From a virus (Duplodnaviria; Caudoviricetes), in IMG/VR virus record IMGVR_UViG_3300048589_000933, positions 1-50,782 of that record: a DNA stretch of 50,782 nt; one strand, given 5' to 3'. The notes under the pieces are model-generated. The model was not told where the DNA came from. It made no database searches and worked only from the letters and a program-made list of their open reading frames with translations. A program made the position numbers and the translations under genes. Shown here piece by piece: positions 1 through 49,857 of the stretch (positions are counted from its first letter, which is position 1; each line of letters begins with the position of its first letter).

Positions 1-44
1 CTTTCACGGTTGCGACCGGGGTTCGAATCCCCGTGGGGACGCCA
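1..44 (+). tRNA. tRNA-Glu(UUC), 3' part (5' end outside window); prophage integration target
   Basis: Anticodon loop CTTTCAC, T-arm CGGGGTTCGAATCCCCG, 3' end GGGGACGCCA (CCA at 42-44). Confidence 0.93.
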
Positions 45-1533
45 CCTTAAACCCGCTTGCCGCGTCGAGTGTGTTCAGCTCGACGCGGTAATGCAGGGTG
101 GCGTCGGTAGTCTCTGGATCCAGCTCGACCCGATCGAGCAGTGCGGCGAGCGCGTCTTTGGTGGCTTCTCTGTTGTCCGCGTCGCGCAGATCGTCGAGCA
201 GTTCGACCATGCGCCGGCGGATATCCATGTCTGTGACCTGTGCCAGTGCCATTGCGGCCTGGTAGTCGCGCTCCTGTGCGCGGATCTGCTCGACTAGGGC
301 AACGCGTTCGCGCTCGAGCTGGTCGAGCTTGCGCACGGCGGGTCCTGGGTCGGCGAGTCTGCCGGCGAGATCCACTGCGCGGCTGATGCGGTCGGTGATG
401 CTGGCCAGCTGCGGCCGCAGGGCGGCGGCGGGGTCTTCGGGAGTTTCTTCGCGGCGGGTGGCCTTGGCGAACAGGCGCACCAGGTCGGTGGTCTGCAGGT
501 CGCTATGCACCTGGGCGACGATGGCGGCCTCGAGCTCGTCGCGCGCGACACGCTTGCCGGGTACGCGGTAGTAGCCCGCGCCATCGCTGTGCCAGGCGCG
601 ACCCTGCGGCGTGAACAGCATGCCGGTCAGCAGGTAAGACGCTGGCGTGCGGCGCGGACGGGTGGCTGAGTACTCCTCGAGGTGCTTCAGGATGCGCTCG
701 GCTTCTGCGTCGGTGATTACCCCGGGGTGGGTGTCTCGCTGCATCATCCATTCGGTGCGCGGCCGCCGGCGTGTTTTGCCTGCCTGTTGCTCGCTGTGCA
801 CGTTCCAGACAGTGTGCCCGGCGTAGGTAAGGGCGTTCCATTCGACGCCGACCAGTGAGGCCTTGGCGATGCGCGGGAGGCCTGGCGCGTGCTCGATCGC
901 GCGAGCCCGGGGCAGTCCGTTGGACCTGGCACGCAGGTAAGCGCCGATCGCGGCGGCGGCGGTATCTGCAAGCTCGAGGGTGGACTTGGTGACGGGCAGG
1001 CCCTCGCGGACGATGCCGGTGTCGATCTTGCGCAGGCGGTAGCCGATCGGCGCGCGGCCGCCGGCGCGGTAGCCGTCGCGGACGTTCTGCGCCATGCCGG
1101 CGAGGCCTTTCTCGCGGCTGGTGAGGCTATGCCATTCGTCCATCGCCTGCAGGATGGACTTGAGCAGCATTTCGGTGATGGGGTCAGCCTCGGGCACGCT
1201 CTTGTAGATCACGCGTACGCCGTGTTTCTTGCACTCGACCTCTTCGAACACGATGGAGATATGCCGGCGCCGCGCCAGGCGCGAGGTATCTAGCACCAGC
1301 AGGTGATCCCAGCCGCGGCGGGGGTTGCGCAGGGCTCGCAGCAGCTGCTGGAAGCCTGGGCGGTCGGTGTCTTTGCCGGACTCGACGACGTCGGCGAAGG
1401 TTTCAGCGATCGACAGGCCTCGGGACAGGGCCAGCGCTTTCAGCTCGCGGCGCTGGACGTCGACCGACACGTCCTTTCGATCCTTCGAGCTGCGGCAGTA
1501 GATCGCCGCGCTCCCGTGTGTTTGTGTCGCCAT
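4..1533 (-). CDS. Large serine recombinase (integrase)
   Basis: N-terminal YCRSSK catalytic motif, SG..DRPGF, DTSRLAR, GGRAPIGY recombinase region, then coiled coil. Adjacent to attL; GGAG upstream of the ATG. Confidence 0.93.
   Translation of the reverse strand: MATQTHGSAAIYCRSSKDRKDVSVDVQRRELKALALSRGLSIAETFADVVESGKDTDRPGFQQLLRALRNPRRGWDHLLVLDTSRLARRRHISIVFEEVECKKHGVRVIYKSVPEADPITEMLLKSILQAMDEWHSLTSREKGLAGMAQNVRDGYRAGGRAPIGYRLRKIDTGIVREGLPVTKSTLELADTAAAAIGAYLRARSNGLPRARAIEHAPGLPRIAKASLVGVEWNALTYAGHTVWNVHSEQQAGKTRRRPRTEWMMQRDTHPGVITDAEAERILKHLEEYSATRPRRTPASYLLTGMLFTPQGRAWHSDGAGYYRVPGKRVARDELEAAIVAQVHSDLQTTDLVRLFAKATRREETPEDPAAALRPQLASITDRISRAVDLAGRLADPGPAVRKLDQLERERVALVEQIRAQERDYQAAMALAQVTDMDIRRRMVELLDDLRDADNREATKDALAALLDRVELDPETTDATLHYRVELNTLDAASGFKVASPRGFEPRSQP
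30..45 (+). repeat. attL core CCCGTGGGGACGCCAC
   Basis: Identical to 43331-43346; overlaps the tRNA acceptor end. Confidence 0.93.
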
Positions 1534-1630
1534 CGATCCGACTCCGTTCCCGCGCCCGCAGCAACGGTACCACCACCGCGACGGCGATCGCTGGGCAGGG
1601 GGCGTTCGCGCTGCGGACGCGGATAGTCAT
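1403..1630 (-). CDS. Possible small protein (75 aa) coupled to the RT stop and overlapping the integrase start
   Basis: ATG at 1630 overlaps the RT TGA (ATGA); no recognisable domain. Confidence 0.3.
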   Translation of the reverse strand: MTIRVRSANAPCPAIAVAVVVPLLRARERSRIDGDTNTRERGDLLPQLEGSKGRVGRRPAPRAESAGPVPRPVDR

Positions 1631-3423
1631 AGGGTGGCCTGGCACCGCAGCCGCACCACCCGCCCTTCCATCGCCGCCGGGAAGCGCCTCTTGGCGGTGG
1701 CTGCCGGGAGCCAGCGGAAGCGCCGCAGCAGCGTCTGCCGCAGCCTGTGGCTGTCGGCGTGGGTGAAGTGGCCCTGGTAGCTGGCCCACACAGCGCGGAC
1801 CGCGCGCAGGCCGTCTGGCGTGGCGAGAATGCGCCGGCCGCGGACGTGGGTGGTCTCCCACTTCGCCAAGGCTTCGCGTGCGTGGCTGACGATGCGGCGG
1901 CGGACGGTGGTGTGGGTGGGGCGGACGATGTACCCGAGGAAGTCGATGCCGGTGGCGAGCGGCGCCAGGCGCTGATCGGCTTTGAGCTCGAGGCGCAGCG
2001 ACTGCTGCAGGAACTGCTCGATCTGCACTCGCCAGCACTCGAGCTGGGCGCGATCGTGGTGGACGATGACGAAGTCGTCGACGTAGCGCAGGTAGCGCTT
2101 GGCCTTGAGCGTGTGCTTGACGAATTGGTCGAGCTGGTCGAGGTAGACGTTAGCGAAGAACTGGCTGCTGAGGTTGCCGATCGGGATCCCGCAGCCCGTC
2201 GGTGCGTTCTGCAGTTGCTTGTGCAGTGGCACGAGTGCGCGGCGCTCAGGTGTGGTGCGGTAGTTGACGCCGGTGCGGTCAATGGATGAACGCAGCAGCG
2301 CGTGCATGGTGCGCTGGGCCGCCAGGCTGAGACCTTCCCGGGTAGTGCGCGTCTTCAGCAGCGCGTATAGCGTGGGGCGATGGATGCGGTTGAAGAAGTT
2401 GGCCACGTCGAGCTGCAGGAACCAGCCGCCACCCTGGCCGCTGTGTACCTCTCGCACGAACTGCTGCAGGCGGCGTACGGCGGCGTGGCTGCCCTTGCCG
2501 CGGCGATTGGCAAAGCTGTCGTGGATGAATGCCGGCTCATAGATGGCCTCGATCTGCGGCACCAGCCAGTGGTGCACGACGCGGTCGCCGAAGTCTGGCG
2601 CGTGGATCTCTCGCGCCTTTGGCCGGGTCGCGATGAAGCACGTCGACGGTTGCGGCTGCCACGTGCCGGCGTTGAGCTGCTCCTGGAGTTCGATCAGGCG
2701 ATCAGCCCAACGGGCATCGAACGCGAGGCGGTTGGCACTGGGTTTCTTGCTGCGGCGCGCGGCCTTCCACGCGGCGTGCAAGTCGGTGAAGCTGACCTGG
2801 TGTTCATCACCCTGCAACTCACGGGCCGGACCGCGAACCGCGCGCACGCGGTTGTTGTTGTCGCGGTGGTTGTTGTTGGCGTTGCCGTTGTTGAAGCTCA
2901 CGATCCACGCGTAAGCGGCAGGCGACGCGTCCCCGCAGACTTGCGACCCGCTCGAGCAGCCGTGCTGGTAGCGCGAGTTCGTCATTTGTAGACCTCCCAT
3001 CGGGAGGCGGGTACTCAGTTGCTGGGCGCGCTGCACGACGGGCGCTTGCCCTTGCGCATCCTGGCCCTTGGGGTGCTGCCCGGTCAGCTGGCGGTACCAA
3101 CCGCCAGCCTGCTTACCCAGTTCGCGAGCGCTGCGGAACAGCGCTTCAAACTGCGCAAGGCTGGTGAATGCACGCAGTCGGCTGCAAAGCTGCAGCTGTA
3201 TTTTCAGCTCATCAATGGCCCACACCAGATTCCACGCATGCTCGCGTTGCCTGGGTCGATCGCGCCAAGCGCGATGGGTGAGCGTGGCGATCGCCAGGGC
3301 CTTCGCGCGCAGGTCGCTGCCTGCCGCGTACCGGTGGTAGCGCGGGAAGCGACGAACAGCCAGCTCGATATCGAGCATCAGTCGCTCGGCAAGCTGTGCG
3401 ATAGGTGGCAGCGCGAAGGTCAT
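1627..3423 (-). CDS. Avd-(TR)-reverse transcriptase in one ORF (598 aa); RT may also start at ATG 2985
   Basis: Residues ~1-113 are Avd-like four-helix bundle (RFPRYHRY..G.DLR ... ELGKQAGGW). The C-terminal part has the DGR RT motifs KAREIHAPDFGDRVVHH, GIPIGNLSSQFFAN, YLRYVDD and GIDFLGY. No stop lies between them; GGAGG precedes ATG 2985. Confidence 0.93.
   Translation of the reverse strand: MTFALPPIAQLAERLMLDIELAVRRFPRYHRYAAGSDLRAKALAIATLTHRAWRDRPRQREHAWNLVWAIDELKIQLQLCSRLRAFTSLAQFEALFRSARELGKQAGGWYRQLTGQHPKGQDAQGQAPVVQRAQQLSTRLPMGGLQMTNSRYQHGCSSGSQVCGDASPAAYAWIVSFNNGNANNNHRDNNNRVRAVRGPARELQGDEHQVSFTDLHAAWKAARRSKKPSANRLAFDARWADRLIELQEQLNAGTWQPQPSTCFIATRPKAREIHAPDFGDRVVHHWLVPQIEAIYEPAFIHDSFANRRGKGSHAAVRRLQQFVREVHSGQGGGWFLQLDVANFFNRIHRPTLYALLKTRTTREGLSLAAQRTMHALLRSSIDRTGVNYRTTPERRALVPLHKQLQNAPTGCGIPIGNLSSQFFANVYLDQLDQFVKHTLKAKRYLRYVDDFVIVHHDRAQLECWRVQIEQFLQQSLRLELKADQRLAPLATGIDFLGYIVRPTHTTVRRRIVSHAREALAKWETTHVRGRRILATPDGLRAVRAVWASYQGHFTHADSHRLRQTLLRRFRWLPAATAKRRFPAAMEGRVVRLRCQATL
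2821..2929 (-). repeat. DGR template repeat (TR), ~109 bp
   Basis: Nine AAC codons and 23 adenines on the coding strand; aligns without gaps to VR1 and VR2. Confidence 0.96.
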
Positions 3424-3442
3424 GGGAGAGCGTCAGAAAGGC

Positions 3443-3955
3443 CTAGAACTGACGGGCCGGACCGCGAACCGCGCGCACGCGGTTGTAGCCGTCGCGGTGG
3501 AAGCCGCTGGCGCTGCCGCTGCCGAAGCACACGAGCCACGCGAAAGCGGCAGGCGACGGCGCGTAGGGCGTGCCGGTCCAGTACCACTCGGACTTGCACG
3601 CGGGGAACGCCTCGGTGTCGATGGCGGGCTCGTGCCGGGTGTCGTCGACCAGCGTGAGCAGCTCGGTGCGTGTCGGCAGGCGCCAGTCGTCGTGCCCGCC
3701 CAAGCGTAGCGCGCGACAGGCGGCCTCGGCGGCCGCCCAGGGCACAGCCTTGGCGGTGGTGTCTTCCTGCGACCACTGCAGGCCGGTGTGCGTGTCGGTG
3801 ACGATGCCATCTGCCGCCTGGAATCGATCGGCGGTTGGGTCGTTGACGGCATGAACTGCAGTCGGCGCCGTCAGCGCAAACGGACGAAGCTCTGCGAGGG
3901 CCGCGAGTGCTGTGATCAAGGTGTCGTCATCGCAGCGCAGGGTAAGTTCGAGCAT
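3443..3955 (-). CDS. DGR target 1: DUF1566/Lcl-type C-lectin-fold protein (170 aa)
   Basis: VTDTHTGLQW, W..A.AAC, DWRLPT..EL, YWTGT, RVRAVRG motifs; VR at the C-terminus; AGGAG upstream. Confidence 0.92.
   Translation of the reverse strand: MLELTLRCDDDTLITALAALAELRPFALTAPTAVHAVNDPTADRFQAADGIVTDTHTGLQWSQEDTTAKAVPWAAAEAACRALRLGGHDDWRLPTRTELLTLVDDTRHEPAIDTEAFPACKSEWYWTGTPYAPSPAAFAWLVCFGSGSASGFHRDGYNRVRAVRGPARQF
3452..3558 (-). repeat. Variable repeat VR1
   Basis: 107-bp gapless match to TR 2821-2927 with 15 mismatches, all at TR adenines. Confidence 0.96.
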
Positions 3956-3986
3956 GGTGATCTCCTGGAGAAAAGCTCAGAAAGGC

Positions 3987-4418
3987 CTAGGACTGACGGG
4001 CCGGACCGCGAACCGCGCGCACGCGGCCGCTGCCGTCGCGGTGGCTGTCGCGGGCGTAGCCGCCGTAGAAGCTCACGACCCACGCGTAAGCGGCAGGCGA
4101 CGCGGCGTAGGGTGTGGCAGTCCAGTACCAGTCCGACTTGCACGTTGGGAACGCGGCGGTGTCGATCGTGGGCTTGGCGCGCGTTCTGTCGGCAAGCGGG
4201 AACAGTTCCTCGACGGTGGGCAGTCGCCAGTCGGTATGTCCGGCAAACGCCTGGGCGTTCAGTGCAGCGATTGCCGCCTCGGCTTCTGAGTGGTCGACAT
4301 CAGCGTCGACGGCGTCGTCGCGCGTCCACTGCAAGCCGGTGGTGGTGTCGGTGACGACGAGCTGGTCGGATGAGACGGAGAAGCGTGAGGCGGTTACGTT
4401 TGCGGCTTGTGCGTTCAT
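3987..4418 (-). CDS. DGR target 2: DUF1566/Lcl-type protein (143 aa; alternative in-frame start 4535)
   Basis: Paralog of target 1 (VTDTTTGLQW, DWRLPTVEEL, YWTAT, RVRAVRG); GAGGA upstream of ATG 4418. Confidence 0.92.
   Translation of the reverse strand: MNAQAANVTASRFSVSSDQLVVTDTTTGLQWTRDDAVDADVDHSEAEAAIAALNAQAFAGHTDWRLPTVEELFPLADRTRAKPTIDTAAFPTCKSDWYWTATPYAASPAAYAWVVSFYGGYARDSHRDGSGRVRAVRGPARQS
3996..4104 (-). repeat. Variable repeat VR2
   Basis: 109-bp gapless match to TR 2821-2929 with 14 mismatches, all at TR adenines. Confidence 0.96.
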
Positions 4419-9375: not shown

Positions 9376-9417
9376 CACTAGCTCCGAAGAGCGCCCCGGC
9401 GGGGCGGATGGCGAAAC

Positions 9418-9455
9418 TATAAACGCGCTTACATCGCAGTGCAAGCGTGCTTACA
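9418..9455. promoter_or_regulatory. OL-like operators (2 sites, consensus TGTAAG-N4-CTTACA)
   Basis: TATAAA-CGCG-CTTACA at 9418-9433 and TGCAAG-CGTG-CTTACA at 9440-9455; same motif as between cI and cro. Confidence 0.75.
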
Positions 9456-9474
9456 TCATCCCGTGCGACTCACC

Positions 9475-10092
9475 CTAGTTGCAGTTCGTGTGCGCAAGCG
9501 CAATCACGTCTTCGGAGACTCGCAGGGAGCGTAATGCCTGCCATAGCTCGAGCAGCGTGGCTGTTGATTCGGCGTTGATTGATCCATCAGACATCACCCC
9601 GCACGTCATGTGCAAAGCCTCGAATCCGCCCATCCTGTTGCGGGCTCGAATCTCGATGCCTAGATGAATGTCGTCTCTTCGGCGGGCCCATGCCGAGGAG
9701 ACAACGTACGCGCTGCGCGGGTCAAGCAAAAGTGGCCGGTACGCGTCGAGGCACTTCTCGGCAGAATTGGCCGGAACGGGCTCTGGGATGGTGCAGAAGG
9801 GGGCATTGTTCTCAGCGTAGCGGCCTTCGCGCTCAGTCTCTTCCGCCACCGATTGCTGCGCCTCCTGTTCAGAGGTGCAGTGCTTGCGCCATATGCCATC
9901 GGGGCACTTGTAGTGGGTGCCACCAGGCGGCTTGTAGGACCAACTCTTGGGGTCTACTTCGTACCGCCTGTCGGTGTCTGAGCAAGACGCTAGTGGCACT
10001 CGGGCGCCATCACGGAAGCAACGAATCTCCGCGCCAACTAAAGATCCTGAAGCAATGAGCAGCGATAGGGTGAGGGCAGAAACATGCGACAT
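9475..10092 (-). CDS. Exported Cys-rich protein downstream of cI (lysogen-expressed accessory gene candidate)
   Basis: Signal-peptide-like N-terminus, several Cys, lower GC, AGGAG RBS right after the cI stop. Confidence 0.65.
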   Translation of the reverse strand: MSHVSALTLSLLIASGSLVGAEIRCFRDGARVPLASCSDTDRRYEVDPKSWSYKPPGGTHYKCPDGIWRKHCTSEQEAQQSVAEETEREGRYAENNAPFCTIPEPVPANSAEKCLDAYRPLLLDPRSAYVVSSAWARRRDDIHLGIEIRARNRMGGFEALHMTCGVMSDGSINAESTATLLELWQALRSLRVSEDVIALAHTNCN

Positions 10093-10106
10093 GTGGGCTC
10101 CTGACG

Positions 10107-10886
10107 CTAACGAAAGAGGCCGCCTGATCCCGACCGGTCGATGACTTGTCCAAACAATGCAACCCGATCTCCAATGGCATCCGCCTCGACAAAGATGTCT
10201 GGGTAGGCCTGCTTGTCACTGTTCTCGCTGACGATACGATAGCCACCACCGTGCCGGAAGATGTACTTGACGACTACTTCGCCGTCCAACGCGAAGGCAT
10301 ACATGTTGCCGCTGCGGATCTGGGTTTCCTCCAGCGTGAAGTGGACCGCGATCTTGTCGCCATCGAAGAGCACGCGCTCCATGCTGGCGCCGTTGACGCG
10401 CATCACTCTGACATTCTCAGGCTTGGCACCGAAGCGCCGAAACCAATCGCGCTGGAAGGGCATGCGGTACTTGGTCTCCACGTACTCCGGCGACCATTGT
10501 CCCGGCCCCGCGCCAGCGACCATGTCTACGAACGGCACAAGTGATTCGGTCATTTGGTCGACGTCGCCGTCCCCATCGATGGCACGCACGGCATATGCGT
10601 GAAGCGGTTCTTGAATTTGCTTCGCACTGGCGGCCGCTTCGGTGCCATCGCGCGGGGCGAAGAATTTTGGCTCTCGGCCCGAATTGAGCCATGTCCCGCG
10701 GTAGCCAGTCTCCGACTCATAAGCGGCGAGCAGCTTCCCTCCAAGCTGTTGGGTCTTCCCGCCTTCGATCAAGTAGATCGCCTGGGCTGTGACTTTCAGT
10801 CGTCTGGCAAACGCCGCAACGTTTCGTTCGCCAGTTGATAGGCGCGCTTCGGTGGCTCGTTCTGCAAGCGTTGACATGTAAGCCAT
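10107..10886 (-). CDS. cI: CI-like repressor (HTH + S24 peptidase)
   Basis: HTH AAFARRLKVTAQAIYLIEGG, AG cleavage site, V.GASME catalytic Ser, VVKY Lys; divergent from cro. Confidence 0.9.
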   Translation of the reverse strand: MAYMSTLAERATEARLSTGERNVAAFARRLKVTAQAIYLIEGGKTQQLGGKLLAAYESETGYRGTWLNSGREPKFFAPRDGTEAAASAKQIQEPLHAYAVRAIDGDGDVDQMTESLVPFVDMVAGAGPGQWSPEYVETKYRMPFQRDWFRRFGAKPENVRVMRVNGASMERVLFDGDKIAVHFTLEETQIRSGNMYAFALDGEVVVKYIFRHGGGYRIVSENSDKQAYPDIFVEADAIGDRVALFGQVIDRSGSGGLFR

Positions 10887-10939
10887 TTTACAATCTTGGC
10901 GTGTAAGTGGGCTTGCTATAAGGGCAAAGTCTGCTTACA
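10877..10939. promoter_or_regulatory. OR-like operators (3 sites)
   Basis: TGTAAG-CCAT-TTTACA (10877-10892), TGTAAG-TGGG-CTTGCT (10902-10917), GCAAAG-TCTG-CTTACA (10924-10939). Confidence 0.75.
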
Positions 10940-10950
10940 CTCCTGCAGCA

Positions 10951-11202
10951 ATGACGCCGACCATCGACAAGAAGCAAGCTCTGGATGCCTACGCCGGCAA
11001 CGCAAGTGCGCTCGCTCGCGCGCTGCAGATCACGCCTCAAGCGATCTACCAGTGGCCTGACGGGCCAATTCTCGAGTTGCACGCCCTGAAGCTTTGGTTT
11101 GTTCTGCGTCCCGAGTACTTCCAGTCGCTGGCCGCTAAGGCCTCGGCGGCTGCAGAGGGCGAACCCACCCCAGACCGCGCCGATAGCGCGCAGGCGGCTT
11201 GA
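10951..11202 (+). CDS. cro: Cro-like HTH regulator
   Basis: ALARALQITPQAIYQW HTH, divergent from cI. Confidence 0.88.
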   Translation: MTPTIDKKQALDAYAGNASALARALQITPQAIYQWPDGPILELHALKLWFVLRPEYFQSLAAKASAAAEGEPTPDRADSAQAA

Positions 11203-11469
11203 ATGCTCAATCCAGCTTACAAGCCCGCAAGCATGCGTTCGGTGGGTATGCCTCCCGCGCATCCCGATGTGGTGGGGCTTTCGCTCAGTTGCGGCACGGA
11301 CTGCCCCGCCGATGCCATGCGCTTTCACTTCACGCGGGAGGAAGCCGAGCGCTTGGCGTTGGCCTTGCTCGATGCGGTCTCCATTCAGCGCTATCGAGTG
11401 GCCCAGTCGTCTATCTGCTCGGGCAAGCCAAATTGCGACGGGTCGCCACAATCGGGCCATGCGCAATGA
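11203..11469 (+). CDS. Module 1 forward ORF, hypothetical
   Basis: ATG immediately after the cro stop and repeat 1. Confidence 0.5.
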   Translation: MLNPAYKPASMRSVGMPPAHPDVVGLSLSCGTDCPADAMRFHFTREEAERLALALLDAVSIQRYRVAQSSICSGKPNCDGSPQSGHAQ

Positions 11470-19548: not shown

Positions 19549-19797
19549 ATGCCCACCGCCGCCGCCACGATGCTGCAATCCTACATGGACGCCGAAACGG
19601 CGCTCCTGAAAGGGCAGTCGATTCGATGGGGTGAGCGCATGCTCACGCGCGCCGATCTGGCCGTGGTGCAGGCAGGCCGCCGCGAGTGGGAGGGAAAGGT
19701 TGCTGCCGAGTCGGCAGCCGCGCAGGGCCGATCATCGCTGTTTGCAGTGGCGGACTTCAGCGGCCGCGGTGGTGACTGCGAGGGCTTCCGGTCGTGA
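19549..19797 (+). CDS. gpW-like head-tail joining protein
   Basis: ML..Y..AE..LL.GQSI....R.LTRADL pattern; sits before the portal. Confidence 0.8.
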   Translation: MPTAAATMLQSYMDAETALLKGQSIRWGERMLTRADLAVVQAGRREWEGKVAAESAAAQGRSSLFAVADFSGRGGDCEGFRS

Positions 19798-22700
19798 ACT
19801 GGGTGGCCCGCGCAATCGACCGCACCGTCGAGACCATCGCGCCCATGCACGGCTTGCGGCGCGCCCAGGCGCGCAACGCCCTCGCGTTGTCCAACAAAGC
19901 GTACGACGCTGCTGATCGCAACCGCTTCCGCGACTCCGTGCGCGACTTCGGCAGCGGCAACAACGCCGTGGTCGGCAGCGGCTTGTACGTGCGCAACATG
20001 GCGCGCCACCTGGACCGCAATCACGACATCGTCAGCGGCGGCCTGCACACCCTGGCGCAAAACATCATCGGCGCCACGGGCATCGGCGTCGAGCCGCAGC
20101 CGCGCAACCGCAACGGCGACGTGCTCGAGGATCTCGCCTTCCAGCTCAGCATGCTCTGGAGCGACTTCTGCAAGCGGCCCGAGGTTACCTGGCAGCACGA
20201 CAACGGCAGCATGGAGCGCCTGTTGTGCCGCACCTGGTTGCGCGATGGCGAAGGCCTCGCGCAGGAGTTGATTGGCCCTGTCCCGCTGCTCGATCACGGT
20301 ACGCGCGTGCCGTACAGCCTGGAGATGATCGAGCCGGACTTGCTGCCGTGGGATTTCACCGAGCCGGGCCGAGGCATCACGCAGGGGGTGCAGCGCAACG
20401 CCTGGGGGCGTCCCGTCGCCTACCACCTGTACAAGCAACACCCCGGCGAGATGCTGGCCCTGCTCGGTGAAACCAAGAGCGTGCCGGCCGAGCGGATGAT
20501 GCACATCAAGCTGGTCGACCGCATCGGCCAGGTGCGTGGTATCAGCCTGCTGGCGTCCGTGCTCACGCGCCTGGACGACCTGAAAGACTACGAAGAAAGC
20601 GAGCGCATCGCCGCGAAGATCGCCGCGTGCTTCGCCGCTTTCATCATCAAGGGCGACGCAACCCATCTGCCGGAAGGCGTGCCCGACAAGGATCGCACTG
20701 CGCGCCTTTCGCCGGGCATGGTGTTTGACACGCTGCGCCCTGGCGAGTCTGTCGGCACTGTCGACACCAATCGCCCCAACCCGAACCTTGAAGGCTGGCG
20801 CAATGGCCAGCTGCGTGCCGGTGCGTCGGGCTTCCGCATCAGCTTCAGTTCGTTCGCGAAGAACTACAACGGCACCTACAGCGCGCAACGGCAAGAGCTG
20901 GTCGAGCAGTACGGCGCCTATGGCGTGCTCAGCCAGGAGTTCATCGGCGCGATCGCGCGCCGTAAGTACGAGCGCTTTGCCGCTGTCGCCCTGGCCACAC
21001 CCGGCCTGCTGCGCATCCCGTCCGACTTCGCGGCCATGAGCATTGGCGACGCGATGTACGTCGCGCCGCAGATGCCGTGGATCAACCCGATGCACGAAGC
21101 CGAGGCCATGGCGCTGCTCGAAGAGCACACCTACATGTCCGGCCCCGAGATCATCCGCCGCCGCGGCGCAAACCCGCGCGACGTGCTCGATCAGCAATCG
21201 GCCTGGATCGAGCGCAAGCGCACCTGGGGCATTCCCAGTGCCACGACCGGGCCAGCCAAGCCACCGGAGAACCCCATGCAAAACACCCCCGGCGCGGCAG
21301 CGCCCGCCGCTGCGCGTCATCGCACCAGCCACCTTGCTGCCGAGGCGTCAACCTCGGGCGCAACTGGCCAGCGCTCGGTGCTGCGCGCCACCGCGCTCGC
21401 CTCTGGCGTCGAGCTGCTGATCTACGGGCCCATTGGCCTGAGCTTCTGGGATGACGGCATCACCGTCGAGTCCATCGCTGCGCAGCTGCGTGCCGCGCCG
21501 GCCGGTGATGTACGCGTGCGCATCAACAGCGACGGCGGCTTTGTCAGCGAGGGCATCGCCATCCACAACGTGCTGCGCGAGTGCGGTCGGCGCGTCGTTG
21601 TCGATATCGAAGGCGTGGCCGCCAGCATCAGCAGCCTGATCGCGATGGCGGGCGATGAGACCCGCATCTACTCCAACGCGTCGATGATGCTGCACACGCC
21701 AAAGGCCGGCCAGTTCGGCTCGCCGGAGGACATGGAAGACGCCGCGCAGTACCTGCGCGTGCAGCGCGAGGCCATGGCGCAGAGCTACGCCCGCAAGACC
21801 GGCCGGCCCGCCGCCGAATTTGTCGCTCTGATGGCTGACGGCCGCGACCACTGGTACACCGCCGGCGAATCCATCACCGAGAAGCTGGCCGACACCCTCA
21901 TCGACGGCACGCCCGCGCAGCTCGAAGCCGACGCTGCGGCCGCTGCCCTTGTCGGCTACATCAACGCGATCAGCAAGGCGCCGGATGCCCCGCGCCTCCA
22001 GCTGCGTTCGCACATCAACTCGGCCGTTTCCGTGGCCGCTTTCGCCTCGCTTTCCGAGGCATACCAACGCTCCGTCCTGGAGCACATAGAGGACCCAGCC
22101 ATGCGTAAGCTTTTGGTTGAAGCAATGGCGGCTGTCGCAGGCGCCCCGCCGAACACCACTCCCGCAGCAGCGCCCGCTGTTGCCACCGCTCCAGCACCTG
22201 CCGTTGCACCAACGCCTGCGCCCGCACCGGCAGCCGTCGCTGTGGCGCCCCAGCCAGCCGCCGTGGCTGCCGATGCGATGGCCCTGGCCACCGCCGCCAT
22301 CGCCCAGCGCAACACCACCATCCGCGGCATCTTTGCCAGCTTCCGCGAAATGACCGGCGTCGCGACGCTCGAGGCCGACGTGCTGGCCGATCCCAGCATC
22401 ACCATCGAGCAGGCGCAGGCGCGCTTGCTGGGCCGCGTTGGCCAGGGTTCGCCGGTGCAGGGCACCGCCGGCCACGTCGAGGCAGGCACTGACGAGCGTG
22501 ACCGTCTGCGCGCAGCCGCATCCAATCTGCTGCTGGCCCGCCACAACATCATCCAGGGCCCCGAGGCCGAAGCCGCGCGCCAGGGCAACCCATTCGGCAG
22601 CATGACGCTGACGGCGATGGCGGAATCGTTCCTGCGCCACCAGCACGTCGACACGCGAGAGATGAACCGCGAGCAGATCGCGGTTCGCGCCCTGGCGCAG

Positions 22701-23591
22701 CAGACCGCCAGCGACTTCGTGGTGGCCCTCGAGAACACGATGCACCGCTCGGTGCAGGCCGGCTACCGGCTCATCCCGTTCACCTGGTCGCGCTTCTGCT
22801 CCGTCGGCATGCTCACCGACTACCGCCCGCACAACCGCTACTCGCTGTCGAGCTTCAGCGATCTGAAGGACGTCAACGAATCCGGCGAGTACGAGGACGG
22901 CTCGCTGGGCGACGCCGAGAAGCAAACCATTCAGGGCAAGCGCAAGGGGCGCATCCTGCAGATCACTCCGGAAGTCGTCGTGAATGACGACCTCGGCTTG
23001 ATCCTGCGTGCAGCTGGCGCCCTCGGCCAGGCCGCGGGTCGCACGATCGAGAAAGACGTGCACGCCCTGTTCGCCTTGAACAGCGGCTTCGGCCCGACGA
23101 TGTCGGACGGCCTCGCGCTGTTCCACGCCAACCACGCGAACCTGGCTGCCACCGCCGGCGCGCCGACCATCGCGATCATCGATGCAATGCGTCAGCAGAT
23201 GGCCAGCCAGATGGACCCGGCCGGTAACGACTACCTGGACATCACCCCTGCGCTGTGGGTGGGCCCAATGGCTCTCGGCAGCACGGCGCGCGAACTGAAC
23301 GCGCAGGAATACAACGACGAAAGCAACAAGAACCAGCGCAAGCCCAATGTTGTGCGTGGTCTCTTCCGCGACGTTGTCGACTCACGCCGGATGGCCGCGC
23401 AGGTCTGGTACACGTTCGCCGATCCGAATGTCGAGCCGGTGTTCGAGGTTGCCTTCCTCGATGGCGTGCAGACGCCGACGCTCGATCAGCAGACCAACTT
23501 CCGCACCGACGGCGTCGCCTGGAAGGTCTCGCATCGCTACGGCGTTGGCGGGGTCGCCTGGCGTGGCGCCGTGCGTAACGCCGGCGGCTGA
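19794..23591 (+). CDS. Lambda-family portal + ClpP-type head protease + major capsid in one 1265-aa ORF (internal starts 21276, 22101)
   Basis: Portal (YDAA, RDGE, GQVRG, YSAQRQ, WINP..E), ClpP (RINSDGG, AASISS, MMLH) and capsid C-terminus (EVAFLDG.QTP, DGV.WKV...YGVG...WRG); no stop between them. Confidence 0.9.
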   Translation: MNWVARAIDRTVETIAPMHGLRRAQARNALALSNKAYDAADRNRFRDSVRDFGSGNNAVVGSGLYVRNMARHLDRNHDIVSGGLHTLAQNIIGATGIGVEPQPRNRNGDVLEDLAFQLSMLWSDFCKRPEVTWQHDNGSMERLLCRTWLRDGEGLAQELIGPVPLLDHGTRVPYSLEMIEPDLLPWDFTEPGRGITQGVQRNAWGRPVAYHLYKQHPGEMLALLGETKSVPAERMMHIKLVDRIGQVRGISLLASVLTRLDDLKDYEESERIAAKIAACFAAFIIKGDATHLPEGVPDKDRTARLSPGMVFDTLRPGESVGTVDTNRPNPNLEGWRNGQLRAGASGFRISFSSFAKNYNGTYSAQRQELVEQYGAYGVLSQEFIGAIARRKYERFAAVALATPGLLRIPSDFAAMSIGDAMYVAPQMPWINPMHEAEAMALLEEHTYMSGPEIIRRRGANPRDVLDQQSAWIERKRTWGIPSATTGPAKPPENPMQNTPGAAAPAAARHRTSHLAAEASTSGATGQRSVLRATALASGVELLIYGPIGLSFWDDGITVESIAAQLRAAPAGDVRVRINSDGGFVSEGIAIHNVLRECGRRVVVDIEGVAASISSLIAMAGDETRIYSNASMMLHTPKAGQFGSPEDMEDAAQYLRVQREAMAQSYARKTGRPAAEFVALMADGRDHWYTAGESITEKLADTLIDGTPAQLEADAAAAALVGYINAISKAPDAPRLQLRSHINSAVSVAAFASLSEAYQRSVLEHIEDPAMRKLLVEAMAAVAGAPPNTTPAAAPAVATAPAPAVAPTPAPAPAAVAVAPQPAAVAADAMALATAAIAQRNTTIRGIFASFREMTGVATLEADVLADPSITIEQAQARLLGRVGQGSPVQGTAGHVEAGTDERDRLRAAASNLLLARHNIIQGPEAEAARQGNPFGSMTLTAMAESFLRHQHVDTREMNREQIAVRALAQQTASDFVVALENTMHRSVQAGYRLIPFTWSRFCSVGMLTDYRPHNRYSLSSFSDLKDVNESGEYEDGSLGDAEKQTIQGKRKGRILQITPEVVVNDDLGLILRAAGALGQAAGRTIEKDVHALFALNSGFGPTMSDGLALFHANHANLAATAGAPTIAIIDAMRQQMASQMDPAGNDYLDITPALWVGPMALGSTARELNAQEYNDESNKNQRKPNVVRGLFRDVVDSRRMAAQVWYTFADPNVEPVFEVAFLDGVQTPTLDQQTNFRTDGVAWKVSHRYGVGGVAWRGAVRNAGG

Positions 23592-44468: not shown

Positions 44469-45518
44469 ATGGAACACGACTACTTGGTCTTCATTGGCCG
44501 CTTCGAGCCGTTTCACAACGGCCACGCCGCCGTCGCCCGCCACGCACTGGCTCGGGCACGCAAGCTGATCGTTCTGGTCGGCTCGGCCGACACCCCACGC
44601 ACCATCCGCAATCCGTGGTCCGCGTCCGAGCGGGCGGTGATGATCCGTGCCGCTTTGGGCGAGGATTCTGCACGCGTGCTGGTGCATCCCTTGCGCGACC
44701 ATCTGTACAACGAGGCGCAGTGGATCACCTCGGTGCAGCGCACGGTGGCGGAAGCCATCCGCATCGATGGCGGTGCCGAGGATGCACGCGTCGGGCTGGT
44801 CGGTCAGGACAAGGACGCCAGCAGCTATTACCTCGCCGAGTTTCCGCAATGGCCGCTGCTTGATGTACGGCGCAGTGAAACGCTGTCGGCCACCGACCTG
44901 CGGCGCTATCTGTTCGAGGCCGATGGTCCCTCCGCCTCCGGTGCCTTGCGCCTGCTCGAGGCCAATGTGCCGACGCCGGTCTACGAGATGCTCGACGCAT
45001 TTCGCCGGAGCTCGCCGGCCTATGCGCAGCTGGTTGCCGAACACCGTTTCATCGATGCCTACCGTGCCGGTTGGGCGGTCGCGCCGTATCCGCCGACCTT
45101 TGTCACCACCGATGCGGTGGTCGTCCATTCCGGCCACCTGCTGCTGGTCCGACGTCGGGCCGAACCCGGCAAGGGTCTGTGGGCGCTGCCCGGTGGCTTT
45201 GTCCAGCAGGGCGAGCGCCTGCTTGATGGCTGCCTGCGCGAGCTGCGCGAGGAGACTCGGCTGCGGGTGCCGATGCCCGTGCTGCGCGGCTCGCTGCGCG
45301 GCACGCATGTGTTCGATCACCCGGAGCGCTCGCTGCGCGGTCGCACCATCACCCACGCTTTCCACTTCGATTTTCCCACCGGCGAGCTGCCGCTGGTGCG
45401 CGGCGCCGACGATGCCGACAAGGCACGCTGGCTGCCGCTGAGCGACGTGCTGGAGATGGGCGCGCAGCTGTTCGAAGATCATCTGCACATCATCGAGTTC
45501 TTCGTCGGTCGCGGTTGA
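44469..45518 (+). CDS. nadM: Bifunctional NMN adenylyltransferase / ADP-ribose Nudix hydrolase (NadM-Nudix)
   Basis: FIGRFEPFHNGH, RNPW, LSATDLR, Nudix box LPGGF...E....CLRELREETR, FEDH. Confidence 0.93.
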   Translation: MEHDYLVFIGRFEPFHNGHAAVARHALARARKLIVLVGSADTPRTIRNPWSASERAVMIRAALGEDSARVLVHPLRDHLYNEAQWITSVQRTVAEAIRIDGGAEDARVGLVGQDKDASSYYLAEFPQWPLLDVRRSETLSATDLRRYLFEADGPSASGALRLLEANVPTPVYEMLDAFRRSSPAYAQLVAEHRFIDAYRAGWAVAPYPPTFVTTDAVVVHSGHLLLVRRRAEPGKGLWALPGGFVQQGERLLDGCLRELREETRLRVPMPVLRGSLRGTHVFDHPERSLRGRTITHAFHFDFPTGELPLVRGADDADKARWLPLSDVLEMGAQLFEDHLHIIEFFVGRG

Positions 45519-45575
45519 CCGACGTTCCGGCCGGGGACAGACCCCCGCCATCACCGACGCGAAGGAGCTTCCGTC

Positions 45576-46997
45576 ATGCGCCACCTCGACAACCTCATCC
45601 TCAACACCGACAGCTACAAGGCCAGCCACTGGCTGCAGTACCCGCCGAACACCGACGCGACCTTCTTCTACGTCGAATCGCGTGGCGGCCAATACGAACG
45701 CACACTGTTCTTCGGTTTGCAGGCGATCATCAAGCAGAGCCTGCTGACGCCGATCACCCATGCCGACGTCGACGAAGCGCGCGACTTCTTCGCTGCCCAC
45801 GGCGAGCCGTTCAACGAGGCGGGCTGGCGGCGCATCGTCGAAGTCCACGGCGGACGCATGCCGGTGCGCATCCGCGCCGTGCCGGAGGGCAGCGTGGTGC
45901 CGACGCACCAGGTGCTGGTCACCATCGAGTCGACCGATCCCGAGGCGTTCTGGCTGCCGTCCTATCTGGAGACCCTGCTATTGCGGCTGTGGTATCCGGT
46001 GACCGTTGCCACGGTCAGCTGGCATGCCAAACGCACCATCCGCAAGTTCCTGCTCAAGACCTCGGACGACCCCGAGGGCCAGCTGCCCTTCAAGCTGCAC
46101 GACTTCGGCGCCCGCGGCGTGTCCAGCAACGAATCGGCCGGCCTTGGTGGTGCCGCGCATCTGGTCAATTTCCTCGGTACCGACACTGTCGCCGGCGTGC
46201 TCACCGCGCGTGCCTACTACGGTGCCGAGATGGCCGGCTTCTCGATCCCGGCCGCCGAGCACAGCACTATCACCAGCTGGGGGCGCGACAACGAGGTCGA
46301 GGCCTATCGCAACATGCTGCGCCAGTTCGCCAAGCCCGGCGCGCTGCTTGCCGTGGTGTCCGACAGCTACGACATTTATCACGCGATCGACCAGCACTGG
46401 GGCGTGACCCTGCGCGACGAAGTCATCGCCTCGGGTGCGACGGTCGTCATCCGCCCGGACTCCGGCGAGCCGGTCGAAGTGGTCCACCGCTGTCTTGAGC
46501 GGCTCGAGGCGCAGTTCGGCAGCAGCACCAACAGCAAGGGCTTTCGCGTGCTCAACCACGTACGGGTGATCCAGGGTGACGGCGTCAACCCGGCCAGCAT
46601 CCGGCAGATTCTGGAACGCATCACCGCCGCCGGCTTTTCCGCCGACAACCTCGCCTTCGGCATGGGTGGGGCGCTGCTGCAGCGGCTCGATCGCGATACC
46701 CAGAAGTTCGCGCTGAAGTGCTCGGCGGCGCGGATTGAGGGGCAATGGCGCGACGTCTACAAGGATCCGATCACCGACACCGGCAAGACCTCAAAGCGCG
46801 GGCGTCTGACACTCGTGCGCTCAGAAGAGTTCGACACCTGGCGCAGCGTGCCGGTGCCAGCCAACCTCGATGCGGTTGAACAGATGTCGGCGCCGGCCGG
46901 CTACCGGCACGCGATGGAAACCGTCTACGAGGATGGTCGACTGCTGCGCGAGTGGACGCTGGAAGAGGTTCGCGCCGCCAGCCGTGGAGCGCTCTGA
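45576..46997 (+). CDS. nadV: Nicotinamide phosphoribosyltransferase (NAMPT)
   Basis: TDSYKASH..QYP, LHDFGARG, SIPAAEHS, VSDSYD, RPDSG, IQGDG, FGMGGALLQ. Confidence 0.93.
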   Translation: MRHLDNLILNTDSYKASHWLQYPPNTDATFFYVESRGGQYERTLFFGLQAIIKQSLLTPITHADVDEARDFFAAHGEPFNEAGWRRIVEVHGGRMPVRIRAVPEGSVVPTHQVLVTIESTDPEAFWLPSYLETLLLRLWYPVTVATVSWHAKRTIRKFLLKTSDDPEGQLPFKLHDFGARGVSSNESAGLGGAAHLVNFLGTDTVAGVLTARAYYGAEMAGFSIPAAEHSTITSWGRDNEVEAYRNMLRQFAKPGALLAVVSDSYDIYHAIDQHWGVTLRDEVIASGATVVIRPDSGEPVEVVHRCLERLEAQFGSSTNSKGFRVLNHVRVIQGDGVNPASIRQILERITAAGFSADNLAFGMGGALLQRLDRDTQKFALKCSAARIEGQWRDVYKDPITDTGKTSKRGRLTLVRSEEFDTWRSVPVPANLDAVEQMSAPAGYRHAMETVYEDGRLLREWTLEEVRAASRGAL

Positions 46998-47316
46998 GGG
47001 GGCGTCGCCGCAGTGGCCCATTCCCGGGCGCAAGGCGACGGCTCTCGCGTCGCGGCGCGAGCGCCGCCCCGGCGGCTCCGCTGGGTCAGTTGGTCGGCGA
47101 CGTGCTGGGCGTTCTCCACGTCGCCTGAAGGGGCAAACGTCAGTGGTGTGCTGCGAGGAAGTGGTGGCGGCACATGGCGGGCGCCTGCGGAGATGAATGG
47201 CCCTGTTCGGGCAACTCACCTGGGTGCGCTGGCCAGGCGACGAGCCACCCTTTGGCCGCTTATCCTTCAGTCGAGAACAAGCGGCCAACTGCCGACTTGA
47301 GGGTTTCGGAACACGC

Positions 47317-49650
47317 ATGAGTCCAAATACTGCCGCTCCCCTTGGAATGCCGTCCTTGCTGACCCGCTGTGGCCAGGTGTTTGGTGCGGAATGGACTGCC
47401 ACCGAGGCAGCCGAGATCCATCAGCGCATCGAGGTGATGGCAGAAGAAGTGGACAGCGCAGGCTTGGCTGAGCTGTCAGAGTCGCTGCTTGAGCTGTCGG
47501 TCTTTCTCTGCTCCCTGGTCGACATGGGCGCGGCGCCCAGTGCCGCCTCGCAAGCGCGAATTGCCGCGATGTGCGCCGCTATGCTTCCTCAGGAGGTCGC
47601 GGCCGCGGCGCCGGTGCAAGAGCGTGCTGCGCTCGCCGAGCGCGCTCCGCTGGTGCTGTTGCTGGTTCCGCCGGGTGTGTCTGCGGCGGCGCTGGTAACC
47701 GAGATCGGTCGCCGCAAGCTGCTGGCGAGCCAGGTCGATTCGCTGGAAGGGCTGGCAGCCGAAGTGTCAAAGCGACCGGTAAGTGTGGTCGCCATCGACA
47801 TCAGTTGGGTGGACCGTGCGGCCGAAGTCTCCGCAGCCATCGAGCGCGCGCATCCGCATGCGTTGACCCAGCCTGGCCTGCTGGCGGTCATCGAGGCCGG
47901 CAACCGGTCACGCCGCATGTTTGCGCTGCGCGCCGGCGTCGATCAAGTGGTCGAGGAGTCATCCGCCAGTACCTTGGCGGACGAGATCTCGGCCTTCGTC
48001 CACAAGCGACGTCACTCTGCCTTTCGCGTGTTGGTGGTGGAAGACGATCACGCCCAGGCCCTCTTTGCCCAGAGGGTGCTGGGTCACCGCGGCATCGAGA
48101 CGCGGGTGGCCGCCAGCGCTGAGGCGGCGCTGGCGATGGTCGAAGACTTCCGCCCCGACCTGTGTCTGCTCGACCTCAACCTGCCGGACCGCAACGGCAT
48201 CGAACTGGCGCAGATGTTGCGCGAGCGCCCCGGCTTCGAACTGGTCCAGATTGTTTTTCTGACCGGAGAGATGGACCCCGATGCCCGCGCACTGGCCGTA
48301 CGTCTGGGCGCCGATGACTGGATCGTCAAGCCGGTGCGACCGCGCGATTTGCTGACCGTGGTGGAAAGCCGCGCGGAGCGCGCGCGGCGTGCGGCGCCGC
48401 ACGACCCGGTGGCCGGGCTGGGCCGCGATGCTGCCCGCGGCGTGCATTCGCGGCGCCGAGTGGTGAGCGCCATCGCCAGCGCCATTGCCGAGCCACCTTC
48501 CGACGACCGCAGCGTGTTGATCGCGGTGTCGCCACAGCTGCCGCCGGAAGATCTGCCGGGCGTCAGCTGGGAGGCGCAGGCCGAACTGGGCGGCGAAATC
48601 GCGCGAGCACTGCGCGGCGACGGGCTGGTGCGCTCTGAGGTTTGCCAGGCCGAGACGCTGTGTTGCCTCTTCATTGCCGACCCCTCGGCGGCCGGTCAGG
48701 TTGCGCTGGCGGCGCTGGCCAACAGCCTCGACCGGCGGCAGTGGCTTGGGGCTGCCGAGAGCGGCGTGCGCCTCGCCTTTGCCGTGGCCGGCCTGCCGCT
48801 GGACCCGCAGCTCACGCCGCACGGCGCCATCGAGAGCGTGCTGTCGTTGCTGCGCAAGGCCCGCGAGCAGGCGCCGCGAGTGCGCTTTCAGGCCGGTGCG
48901 AGCGCCCAGGCTGCGCCGCCGGGCTGGCCGCAGCTGCGCAAGATGTTCAACGACGACGCCCTTGGTCGTTCGCATCGGCTCGCCTTCCACCCGCTGGTGC
49001 CGGTGACCGGCACGCGCAGTGGTCAATTCCTGCTCAGCGCGGAATTCGAGGTCGTGCTGGACGACGGCGGCAGCGTGGTTCCCGACCACCGCGCCTTTGC
49101 CCGCTCGGCTGGATTTCACCTCAAGCTCGACCAGTGGCTGCTGTCGCGCTGCCTGGATCGCCTGCGTCTGTCGCGCGGCGGCCTCAGCCTGCACGTCGAG
49201 GTGTGTCCGGAATCGCTTGAGGACCCGGCGCTGGCGGCCTGGCTGCAGGCCGAACTGCAGCGGCGCCGGATTCCGGCGCCCGATCTGATGCTCTGGGTGG
49301 CCGCGGATCGCATGCGTGGCGCCGGCAGCCGCGTCTCGCAGTACCTGCGGCCCTACGCGGCCATGGGCGTGCAGATCGGCATCGGCCCACTCGGCGATAC
49401 GCCGGCTGAGCTCGAACTGCTGAAGTTGGACGAGGTGCACATGATCAGCTGCAGGGCAGGGGCCACGGCAACGGAAATCTCGCCGGTGCTGCTGCAAGCC
49501 GCCGCAGAGCGCGGCAAGTCCGTGCTGGTGGACAGTGTGGACGACCCGAGCACGGCGGGCGCCGTGTTCCGCCTGCCCATCCACTACGTCACTGGCCTGG
49601 CCATTTCGCCACCGCTGACGCGACCGGAGTTCGAGTTCCCCAGCCAGTGA
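47317..49650 (+). CDS. Response regulator with REC domain(s) and degenerate GGDEF/EAL domains
   Basis: RVLVVEDD...PDLCLLDLNLPD.NG...GADDWIVKP; C-terminal EAL-like fold lacking the EAL motif. Start uncertain (47197 alternative). Confidence 0.82.
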   Translation: MSPNTAAPLGMPSLLTRCGQVFGAEWTATEAAEIHQRIEVMAEEVDSAGLAELSESLLELSVFLCSLVDMGAAPSAASQARIAAMCAAMLPQEVAAAAPVQERAALAERAPLVLLLVPPGVSAAALVTEIGRRKLLASQVDSLEGLAAEVSKRPVSVVAIDISWVDRAAEVSAAIERAHPHALTQPGLLAVIEAGNRSRRMFALRAGVDQVVEESSASTLADEISAFVHKRRHSAFRVLVVEDDHAQALFAQRVLGHRGIETRVAASAEAALAMVEDFRPDLCLLDLNLPDRNGIELAQMLRERPGFELVQIVFLTGEMDPDARALAVRLGADDWIVKPVRPRDLLTVVESRAERARRAAPHDPVAGLGRDAARGVHSRRRVVSAIASAIAEPPSDDRSVLIAVSPQLPPEDLPGVSWEAQAELGGEIARALRGDGLVRSEVCQAETLCCLFIADPSAAGQVALAALANSLDRRQWLGAAESGVRLAFAVAGLPLDPQLTPHGAIESVLSLLRKAREQAPRVRFQAGASAQAAPPGWPQLRKMFNDDALGRSHRLAFHPLVPVTGTRSGQFLLSAEFEVVLDDGGSVVPDHRAFARSAGFHLKLDQWLLSRCLDRLRLSRGGLSLHVEVCPESLEDPALAAWLQAELQRRRIPAPDLMLWVAADRMRGAGSRVSQYLRPYAAMGVQIGIGPLGDTPAELELLKLDEVHMISCRAGATATEISPVLLQAAAERGKSVLVDSVDDPSTAGAVFRLPIHYVTGLAISPPLTRPEFEFPSQ

Positions 49651-49693
49651 AGCGGGCAGAGGATGGCGGACAAACACCGTGCGACGCCGAAGT

Positions 49694-49722
49694 TTGACGA
49701 AGCAGCGCGCCAGCCCTATCAT
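49694..49722 (+). promoter_or_regulatory. Sigma70 promoter of tRNA-Val
   Basis: TTGACG-N17-TATCAT. Confidence 0.75.
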
Positions 49723-49735
49723 TCCGGGCTGACTT

Positions 49736-49810
49736 GGGCGGTTAGCTCAGCGGTAGAGCACTGCTTTCACACGGCAGGGGTCACAGGTTCAATCCCTGTA
49801 CCGCCCACCA
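49736..49810 (+). tRNA. tRNA-Val(CAC)
   Basis: GGGCGGTTAGCTCAGCGGTAGAGC...TTCACAC...GGTTCAATCC...CCGCCCACCA cloverleaf. Confidence 0.96.
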
Positions 49811-49823
49811 AGGCTTCAAGACA

Positions 49824-49857
49824 ACACAGGCTCGCTTCGGCGGGCCTGTGTCGTTTT
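49824..49857 (+). terminator. Intrinsic terminator after tRNA-Val
   Basis: ACACAGGCTCGC-TTCG-GCGGGCCTGTGT followed by CGTTTT. Confidence 0.75.

Follow-up and report, generated by a model that had tools for sequence, protein, structure and literature searches.

The virus record IMGVR_UViG_3300048589_000933 (Duplodnaviria; Caudoviricetes), analysed here over its full 50,782 nt (hereafter the window), is a lambdoid siphovirus prophage with host flank, and it carries a genuine diversity-generating retroelement (DGR) in the leftward, integrase-proximal (early) arm of that prophage. The genes concerned all lie on the minus strand and run, in order, from a ParB-like protein through target 2, target 1 and the accessory protein Avd, with the template repeat (TR) and the reverse transcriptase (RT), to a large serine recombinase, which is the last gene of the leftward string (Table 1). 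A first-pass annotation, made from the sequence alone, had described this cassette as a two-target DGR of stand-alone DUF1566 proteins placed between parB and the integrase; gene order and strand are as it described, and profile matches for the RT, for Avd and for both targets support its identification. Judging from the relatives of the RT and a G+C content of approximately 67%, the host would be of Lysobacterales type.

Template repeat, variable repeats and reverse transcriptase

Each target gene carries a variable repeat (VR) at its 3' end. Gapless alignment on the coding (minus) strand leaves 15 positions at which the TR differs from VR1 and 14 at which it differs from VR2. Every one of these 29 differences sits on an adenine of the TR (20 A>G, 7 A>T, 2 A>C), and our alignment reproduces exactly the coordinates and counts obtained at first pass. 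Given 23 adenines among the 109 nt of the TR, the hypergeometric chance of every mismatch lying on an A is 4.8e-13 for VR1 and 5.1e-12 for VR2, and mismatches at non-A positions within the homology are absent (0 of 84 positions in VR1, 0 of 86 in VR2). Stretching VR1 to 109 nt introduces two non-A mismatches at its 5' edge, and thus its homology truly stops at position 3558. Upstream of the VRs, 150 nt of the two target genes are just 71% identical. The TR adenines are distributed over nine AAC codons and five single-A codons, and their substitution cannot create a stop codon. The ceiling per VR is 7.0e13 variants at the DNA level, in agreement with the earlier estimate of about 7e13 from 23 adenines, and 3.9e13 at the protein level.

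The final 30 nt of the TR, VR1 and VR2 are identical and G+C-rich, and the first base to differ past this 3' end is G in the TR (base 2820, coding strand) and C in both VRs, which end 6-7 nt ahead of the target stop codons. This invariant 3' part, together with the C/G discriminating base, probably acts as the initiation of mutagenic homing (IMH) site. DNA folds of the 61 nt around the VR and TR ends revealed no significant hairpin after the VRs (z = -0.55, 0.06 and 0.08). Approximately 19 nt past each VR (3433-3451 and 3977-3995), stop codon included and with a TAGGCCTTTCTGA core, are also nearly identical between the two target genes, and this near-identity extends past the point at which the TR diverges; it could be a remnant of duplication or a target-side signal.

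BLAST searches of the whole record with the TR (E up to 10) return three copies only, namely the TR, VR1 and VR2, and a scan with the 25-mer from the TR 3' end, allowing up to three mismatches, gives three matches against 0.00 expected. Consequently, neither search finds a third VR in the tail or fibre genes of the 50.8-kb record, in agreement with the first-pass statement that these genes have no VR copy. Beyond the record, an exact 30-mer from target 1 found no match in viral_contigs or metagenome_contigs, and a search of sequencing runs listed a single DNA run with 0.05 of the sampled words, present in short contigs of relatives that leave VR1 uncovered, and no RNA run.

The RT begins at an ATG (2985) preceded by GGGAGG, a start position kept in 13 of 13 relatives, and its sequence includes the motifs IGNLSSQ and YVDD; an IGxxxSQ motif is typical of DGR RTs. 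None of the NCBIfam models specific to DGR RTs matched it. Its similarity to the RTs of isolated phages is low, at no more than 41.7% identity among the matches listed and below 60% in all 149 matching records. The TR occupies codons 19-55 of the RT open reading frame (ORF). The RT N-terminus is in effect a translated copy of the lectin-fold tail of the targets, with a weak Pfam Lcl_C match, and this layout is kept in related loci. Avd falls below the cut-offs of the curated models (Pfam bAvd, 22.3 bits against 40; NCBIfam DivGenRetAVD, 43.6 bits against 80), and it shares 34-60% identity with the Avd proteins of relatives, in a consistent position.

Table 1 Features of the DGR cassette and of its surroundings in the window (positions are those of the window)
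Feature	Coordinates	Strand	Evidence and remarks
Large serine recombinase (integrase)	4..1533	-	Pfam Resolvase 1.9e-21; weak Recombinase match; phrog_95 integrase 3.7e-46
DGR reverse transcriptase, 452 aa	1627..2985	-	phrog_1423 6.3e-106; RVT_1 1e-16, 61.7 bits (cut-off 29.6)
Template repeat (TR)	2821..2929	-	23 adenines; 3' 30 nt G+C-rich and invariant
avd accessory gene, homology over ~138 aa	3010..3423	-	phrog_3206 'Avd protein of DGR' 1.7e-15
Target 1, 170 aa	3443..3955	-	Pfam Lcl_C 1.5e-30, 106.3 bits (cut-off 34.9)
VR1	3452..3558	-	3' end of target 1; IMH-like invariant 3' part at 3452-3481
Target 2, 143 aa	3987..4418	-	Pfam Lcl_C 7.6e-32, 110.5 bits (cut-off 34.9)
VR2	3996..4104	-	3' end of target 2
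ParB-like protein, 658 aa	4532..6508	-	phrog_7783 4.8e-81; ParB_N 6e-4, below cut-off
Leftward promoter-/operator-like site	9416..9456	-	TTGCAC 9444-9439, 17-nt spacer, TATAGT 9421-9416; read by eye
cI-type repressor, 259 aa	10107..10886	-	Peptidase_S24 1.5e-19
cro-like gene, divergent from cI	10951..11202		P22_Cro 7.7e-07, just below cut-off

Related loci

Relatives of the RT number 66 in a collection of species-representative genomes and 22 in IMG/VR. The closest of these are 55-69% identical and come from Lysobacter, Frateuria, Aquimonas, Arenimonas caeni, Pseudoxanthomonas and Nevskia, genera which we take to belong to the same order as Stenotrophomonas, and from viral contigs of 21-49 kb; the family includes prophages of cultured strains, namely Arenimonas caeni z29 and Pseudoxanthomonas sp. 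LH2527 (loci L008 and L010). The repeats were compared in 27 of the 88 loci, those with RT identity of approximately 50% or more and with sequence present upstream of the RT; L070 and L087 were excluded because the RT lies at a contig edge, and the loci include duplicates (L008/L074, L084/L085) and near-duplicates (L075/L076).

A TR in the RT 5' end, accompanied by one to three VRs, is present in all 27 loci (one VR in 7, two in 14 and three in 6). Mismatches between TR and VR lie nearly always at A, and every full-length alignment shows a single G>C at the 3' boundary. Indeed, in 27 of 27 loci the VRs equal their own TR apart from the A positions and this one 3' G>C, while the loci themselves differ by approximately 15% in DNA. 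Because VRs match their own TR at non-A positions despite this divergence, and despite upstream sequences that in the window are 71% identical, homing appears to have kept operating across the family, which lends indirect support to recent or ongoing homing. Target proteins of the relatives, with starts called by an ATG and a Shine-Dalgarno-like sequence, are 133-195 aa in length. In some relatives the distance between TR and VR is 1.5-6 kb, and in one of these (L008) the ParB-like gene intervenes.

Two further possibilities suggested by individual loci were rejected. Of 29 related loci, only six have a homolog of the ParB-like protein within their flanks (L008, L074, L077, L010, L069 and L070, the first two being the same sequence), and the ParB-like protein is consequently not an obligatory partner of the cassette. 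Locus L078 (2400-5800) is approximately 99% identical to L075 (3000-6400) and has one target against two, with a junction inside the VRs as expected from recombination between tandem repeats; L078 represents a deletion between tandem VRs, with the second VR unchanged, and not a fresh diversification.

The targets and their genomic setting

Target 1 consists of an N-terminal extension of approximately 45 aa followed by the C-type-lectin-fold Lcl_C domain, and target 2 is nearly the lectin-fold domain alone, with some 20 residues ahead of it and a start ('MNA') common to relatives. An AlphaFold2 model of target 1, computed from an alignment of 30 family members, has a pLDDT of 85.8, with only the first 44 residues uncertain. 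Its best match in the PDB is the C-terminal domain of Legionella Lcl (8q4e, E 1e-5); C-type-lectin-like proteins and the fibre domain of Bdellovibrio Bd2740 (8oks) come next. The VR-encoded part of the proteins, residues 138-158 in target 1 and the matching stretch in target 2, lies within the C-type-lectin fold; in the model of target 1 these residues form two strands (138-143 and 148-153) and the loop after each.

A Pfam search gave no domain other than Lcl_C in either target, and hence no fibre or anchor domain, and N-termini read by eye show neither a signal-like sequence nor a lipobox. Searching target 1 against 5.8 billion proteins returned 197 short homologs at E <= 0.001, and all 120 of these that were listed contain PF07603, some bearing the names of Stenotrophomonas and Xylella. 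Applied to the closest 120 of these short homologs, a crude heuristic based on hydrophobicity and sequence pattern flags one signal-like N-terminus and no lipobox, a result which agrees with the first-pass statement that the targets have neither signal peptide nor anchor. Longer homologs numbered only six, at 35-43% identity. With target 2 as query, tblastn against 50,697 phage records gave no match, and PADLOC returned nothing for the two targets and the small neighbouring proteins examined; its output was confined to weak PD-Lambda-5_A matches for the ParB-like protein (E 7.6e-05 to 6.8e-04) and generic RT matches for the RT. Taken as sequences, the targets are probably not fibre proteins and not obviously exported. 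Among relatives, Avd-adjacent targets tend to have an N-terminal alternating-hydrophobic motif of approximately 20 aa (M..L.I....L.LHL; e.g. L006:9030, L072:9010, L091:9009). The version of this motif in target 1 of the window (3823-3955) is divergent, and the additional paralogues of the relatives are without it.

No head or tail gene shares the coding strand of the targets, and the conservation of the cassette is independent of that of the tail. Six relatives are complete according to CheckV, and RT, Avd and targets are kept in all six. Homologs of the major tail protein of the window, its 509-aa fibre and its 337-aa and 694-aa tail proteins occur in none of them, and homologs of the tape measure and the 1195-aa tail protein in one (the latter also in 2 of 10 related viral records). 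The cassette thus appears to travel with unrelated tail modules. The capsid part of a 1265-aa ORF and the 127-aa gene that follows it are common to five of the six.

With regard to regulation, genes from 9444 down to 4 are all on the minus strand, and a scan found no terminator-like site on that strand below 9426. Two ATGTAAGC repeats (9456-9449 and 9434-9427) lie at the leftward promoter-like element, and all three ATGTAAGC and all six TGTAAGY occurrences of the window fall inside 9427-11221, that is, at the leftward site and in the cI/cro intergenic region. In relatives, too, the cassette belongs to a string of genes that all run in one direction, divergent from CII and with a mosaic set of neighbours, and in L086 this string converges on the tail genes, as expected for a circular map.

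The remainder of the window is that of a temperate siphovirus. Rightward genes run in the order CII, primase, VapE-like helicase, terminase, portal-protease-capsid ORF, lysis genes, 509-aa fibre, major tail protein and tape measure, followed by three distal tail proteins ending at 43274. The portal-protease-capsid ORF (19794-23591, plus strand, 1265 codons) matches profiles for portal (residues 6-536), head maturation protease (approximately 530-800) and major head protein (804-1264), and is either a true fusion or a set of adjacent genes without stops in a G+C-rich frame. Between the cI-type repressor gene and the operator-like site, and directly after the former, lies a gene (9475-10092, minus strand) for a 205-aa protein whose N-terminus is hydrophobic and which has no family match; such a position is typical of a lysogen-expressed gene. 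Region 44469-50782 contains a NadM/Nudix-like gene, a nicotinamide phosphoribosyltransferase gene (72% DNA identity to a gene of a Xanthomonas jumbo phage), a gene for a response-regulator/EAL protein and tRNA-Val; the flank protein encoded at 47197-49650 has distant receiver domains as its sole matches. This region is probably host flank, which would place the right prophage end near 43.3-44.4 kb. The tRNA-Val (49736-49810) is the only tRNA that ARAGORN finds in the window, and positions 1-46, which the last ~14 codons of the recombinase overlap, resemble by eye the 3' half of a tRNA (T-arm and acceptor end). Megablast against isolated phages returned nothing for the first half of the window; for the second half it gave only a NAD gene and a match of the size of a tRNA.

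Known DGRs and the possible role of the targets

The DGR of Bordetella phage BPP-1 comprises the tail-fibre target Mtd, bAvd, a TR and the reverse transcriptase Brt. The present element resembles it in possessing Avd, TR and RT, in the position of the VR at the 3' end of a C-type-lectin-fold gene, in its adenine-specific changes, its AAC-rich TR, its invariant G+C-rich 3' end with a base that discriminates TR from VR, and its carriage by a temperate phage. It differs in that Mtd is a multi-domain tail fibre, whereas here two stand-alone targets of 143 and 170 aa are encoded opposite the tail genes; furthermore, the TR lies inside the RT ORF and no significant hairpin follows the VRs. The targets have neither the N-terminal fibre and trimerisation domains of Mtd-like tail fibres nor their location in the tail module.

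Since every part matches the BPP-1 paradigm, we infer that the element works by retrohoming. Under this mechanism, the leftward string would be transcribed once the operator-like repeats at 9427-9456 are no longer occupied by the cI-type repressor. Avd and the RT would then copy TR RNA into cDNA with random bases opposite A, and this cDNA would replace VR1 or VR2, starting from the common G+C-rich 3' end, with the TR itself protected by a single base (G, where the VRs have C). Each progeny genome would consequently carry its own pair of variants, drawn from approximately 4e13 possible per gene.

Several of these features have precedents. Wu et al. (2018) assign DGRs with DUF1566/CLec2 targets, such as Legionella LdtA, to their category d (PMC5758913), and the target domain here (DUF1566/Lcl_C) is the same. 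DUF1566-type targets account for 14% (51) of the DGRs in that survey, about half of them short and without another motif; two-target cassettes make up 13%, and one Stenotrophomonas DGR has eight tandem targets (PMC5758913). In human-microbiome DGRs, DUF1566 is reported as the commonest target domain (Ye 2014, PMC4159848), and a Vibrio cholerae DGR with two DUF1566 targets is described in the MyDGR paper (PMC6602519) and by Yan et al. 2019 (PMC6642488). The DGR of Stenotrophomonas sp. SKA14, with 6-8 tandem CLec2/DUF1566 targets (PMC6602519, PMC6642488), is by its description also alike, having several short tandem targets beside an Avd-RT core; unlike the window, it has more targets and reportedly two TRs. 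Its host genus also recurs in the names of some short homologs of target 1. The literature therefore already contained short targets made up of DUF1566 alone, DGRs with two targets and a Stenotrophomonas DGR with several (PMC5758913, PMC6602519, PMC6642488), and the novelty implied at first pass was overstated; published DGR catalogues may list these very loci. The present element is a true DGR whose type has been catalogued before and has many representatives among Lysobacterales prophages; it adds a member rather than a new kind.

The role of such targets is less well covered. LdtA is described as a surface lipoprotein (PMC5758913), whereas neither the N-termini of the window targets, read by eye, nor the heuristic applied to 120 homologs place them with surface lipoproteins of the LdtA/TvpA type. 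The DGR papers surveyed report no function for short single-domain DUF1566 targets, and the Tentaclin paper (PMC10743442) calls it unclear what part two different targets play in a phage DGR. Similarly, no early-expressed phage DGR target was apparent in the literature on DGRs and on anti-defence or cytoplasmic variable proteins, judged mainly from titles and abstract openings. Intracellular or immune roles of DGR targets do have a precedent as an idea, in DGRs proposed to diversify regulators or sensors of cyanobacteria and multicellular bacteria (PMC7517822, PMC11661182), although those targets are cellular, multi-domain signalling proteins and the window targets are phage-borne and single-domain.

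Considering placement and sequence together, we suggest that the targets are soluble cytoplasmic proteins, made early and outside the tail, which provide an evolvable pair of binders for a variable molecule of the host or of a rival phage met early in infection, a reading that seems to us to stand about an even chance of being right. Selection could then act on single variants, because each genome would express its own variant at the next infection. The first-pass proposal that the pair binds host defence or regulatory proteins inside the cell is coherent, though still conjectural. Several observations weigh against it. The leftward promoter matches the consensus at 8 of 12 positions and is absent from the list produced by the promoter scan. 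As a result, the early leftward operon behind operators resembling a left operator (OL) is no more than a reasonable reading, for which the minus-strand string and the repeats beside the cI-type repressor speak. The missing avd stop codon, considered below, may impair the element or be a sequencing indel. Moreover, the same fold is found at the tips of long fibre-like phage proteins (matches of 594, 1034 and 1417 aa) and in Bdellovibrio fibres (8oks), with short stand-alone DUF1566 proteins likewise present in other phages; the strand-like N-terminal motif shared by several of the relatives' Avd-adjacent targets is a possible docking element; the head genes, common in part to five of the six complete relatives, leave room for a capsid partner; and viral DGR targets are mostly assigned as structural, with unannotated ones presumed so, in the preprint of Roux et al. 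(10.1101/2020.04.01.020958).

The last four of these points are also the case for an alternative that is possible, if on the doubtful side, in which the targets are virion accessories docked non-covalently on the tail fibre, the tail tip or the capsid, and serve as diversified receptor-binding or adhesion subunits for tropism switching as in BPP-1, much as the fibres of some phages are capped by stand-alone adhesins. The Lcl adhesin shares the fold, and on the circular map of L086 the cassette lies across attP from the tail genes, which is also compatible with a virion role. However, target 2 has almost no sequence outside its lectin domain, both genes are opposite in strand to the head and tail genes and downstream of the operator-like site, and the cassette is found with unrelated tail modules, tail-gene homologs occurring in at most one of the six complete relatives. 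The 50,697 phage records hold no homolog of target 2, which counts against a virion accessory and also means that no virion proteome bears on the targets.

A different objection is that the element in this particular record is inactive and its VRs are frozen products of past homing, which we consider unlikely. All 13 relatives checked have an avd gene that terminates at a TGA overlapping the RT ATG (ATGA), whereas here avd has no stop codon and reads in frame through the TR into the RT, forming an ORF of 598 codons (1627-3423); the shift stems from the last ten codons, where the lengths differ by a number of nucleotides not divisible by three. This continuity could represent a genuine fusion, a defect that arose very recently or an indel introduced by sequencing, and as it is confined to this record, an Avd-RT fusion as a trait of the family was rejected. 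Against inactivity, the RT retains its own ATG and Shine-Dalgarno sequence, the difference in avd could be an assembly indel, and both VRs are free of non-A mismatches, so that any inactivation would have to be very recent.

Alternatively, the targets might serve the lysogen, being expressed from a weak promoter of their own in the prophage as diversified sensors or blockers of incoming phages or cells, in a defence-like or exclusion role. The sensors proposed for cyanobacteria and multicellular bacteria (PMC7517822, PMC11661182, PMC10053308), the 113-nt gap ahead of target 2 and the integrase-proximal location, where accessory genes accumulate, would fit such a role. Nevertheless, we regard it as very unlikely, since a scan found no promoter-like site in the 113-nt gap, no effector domain is present in or beside the targets, PADLOC is blank for the targets and the small neighbours tested, and the string lies behind repressor-type operators. 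It is highly improbable that the targets are free extracellular lectins which coat, for example, debris, exopolysaccharide or neighbouring cells after lysis, as the lectin fold without an anchor and a lysis cassette that would free cytoplasmic proteins might allow, given that no observation supports this, that early expression would be unneeded, and that selection on variants would be weak with the released protein unlinked from its encoding genome.

An extension of the proposal of early cytoplasmic binders, bolder and in our view rather unlikely, is that a clade of temperate Lysobacterales phages keeps a DGR in order to make free cytoplasmic lectin-fold binders, a pre-diversified repertoire comparable to a minimal antibody library, from which each infection selects variants that neutralise a variable host-defence or rival-phage protein. 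If so, the recurring presence of one or two short paralogues beside a longer target next to Avd would reflect a division of labour between binders. For this family, the default assumption that unannotated targets of viral DGRs belong to the virion looks doubtful, given the early-arm location of the genes, their lack of an anchor and their association with unrelated tails. The location and the ligand of the targets would decide whether phages use DGRs beyond tropism switching, and the family offers a tractable route to what short DUF1566 targets do.

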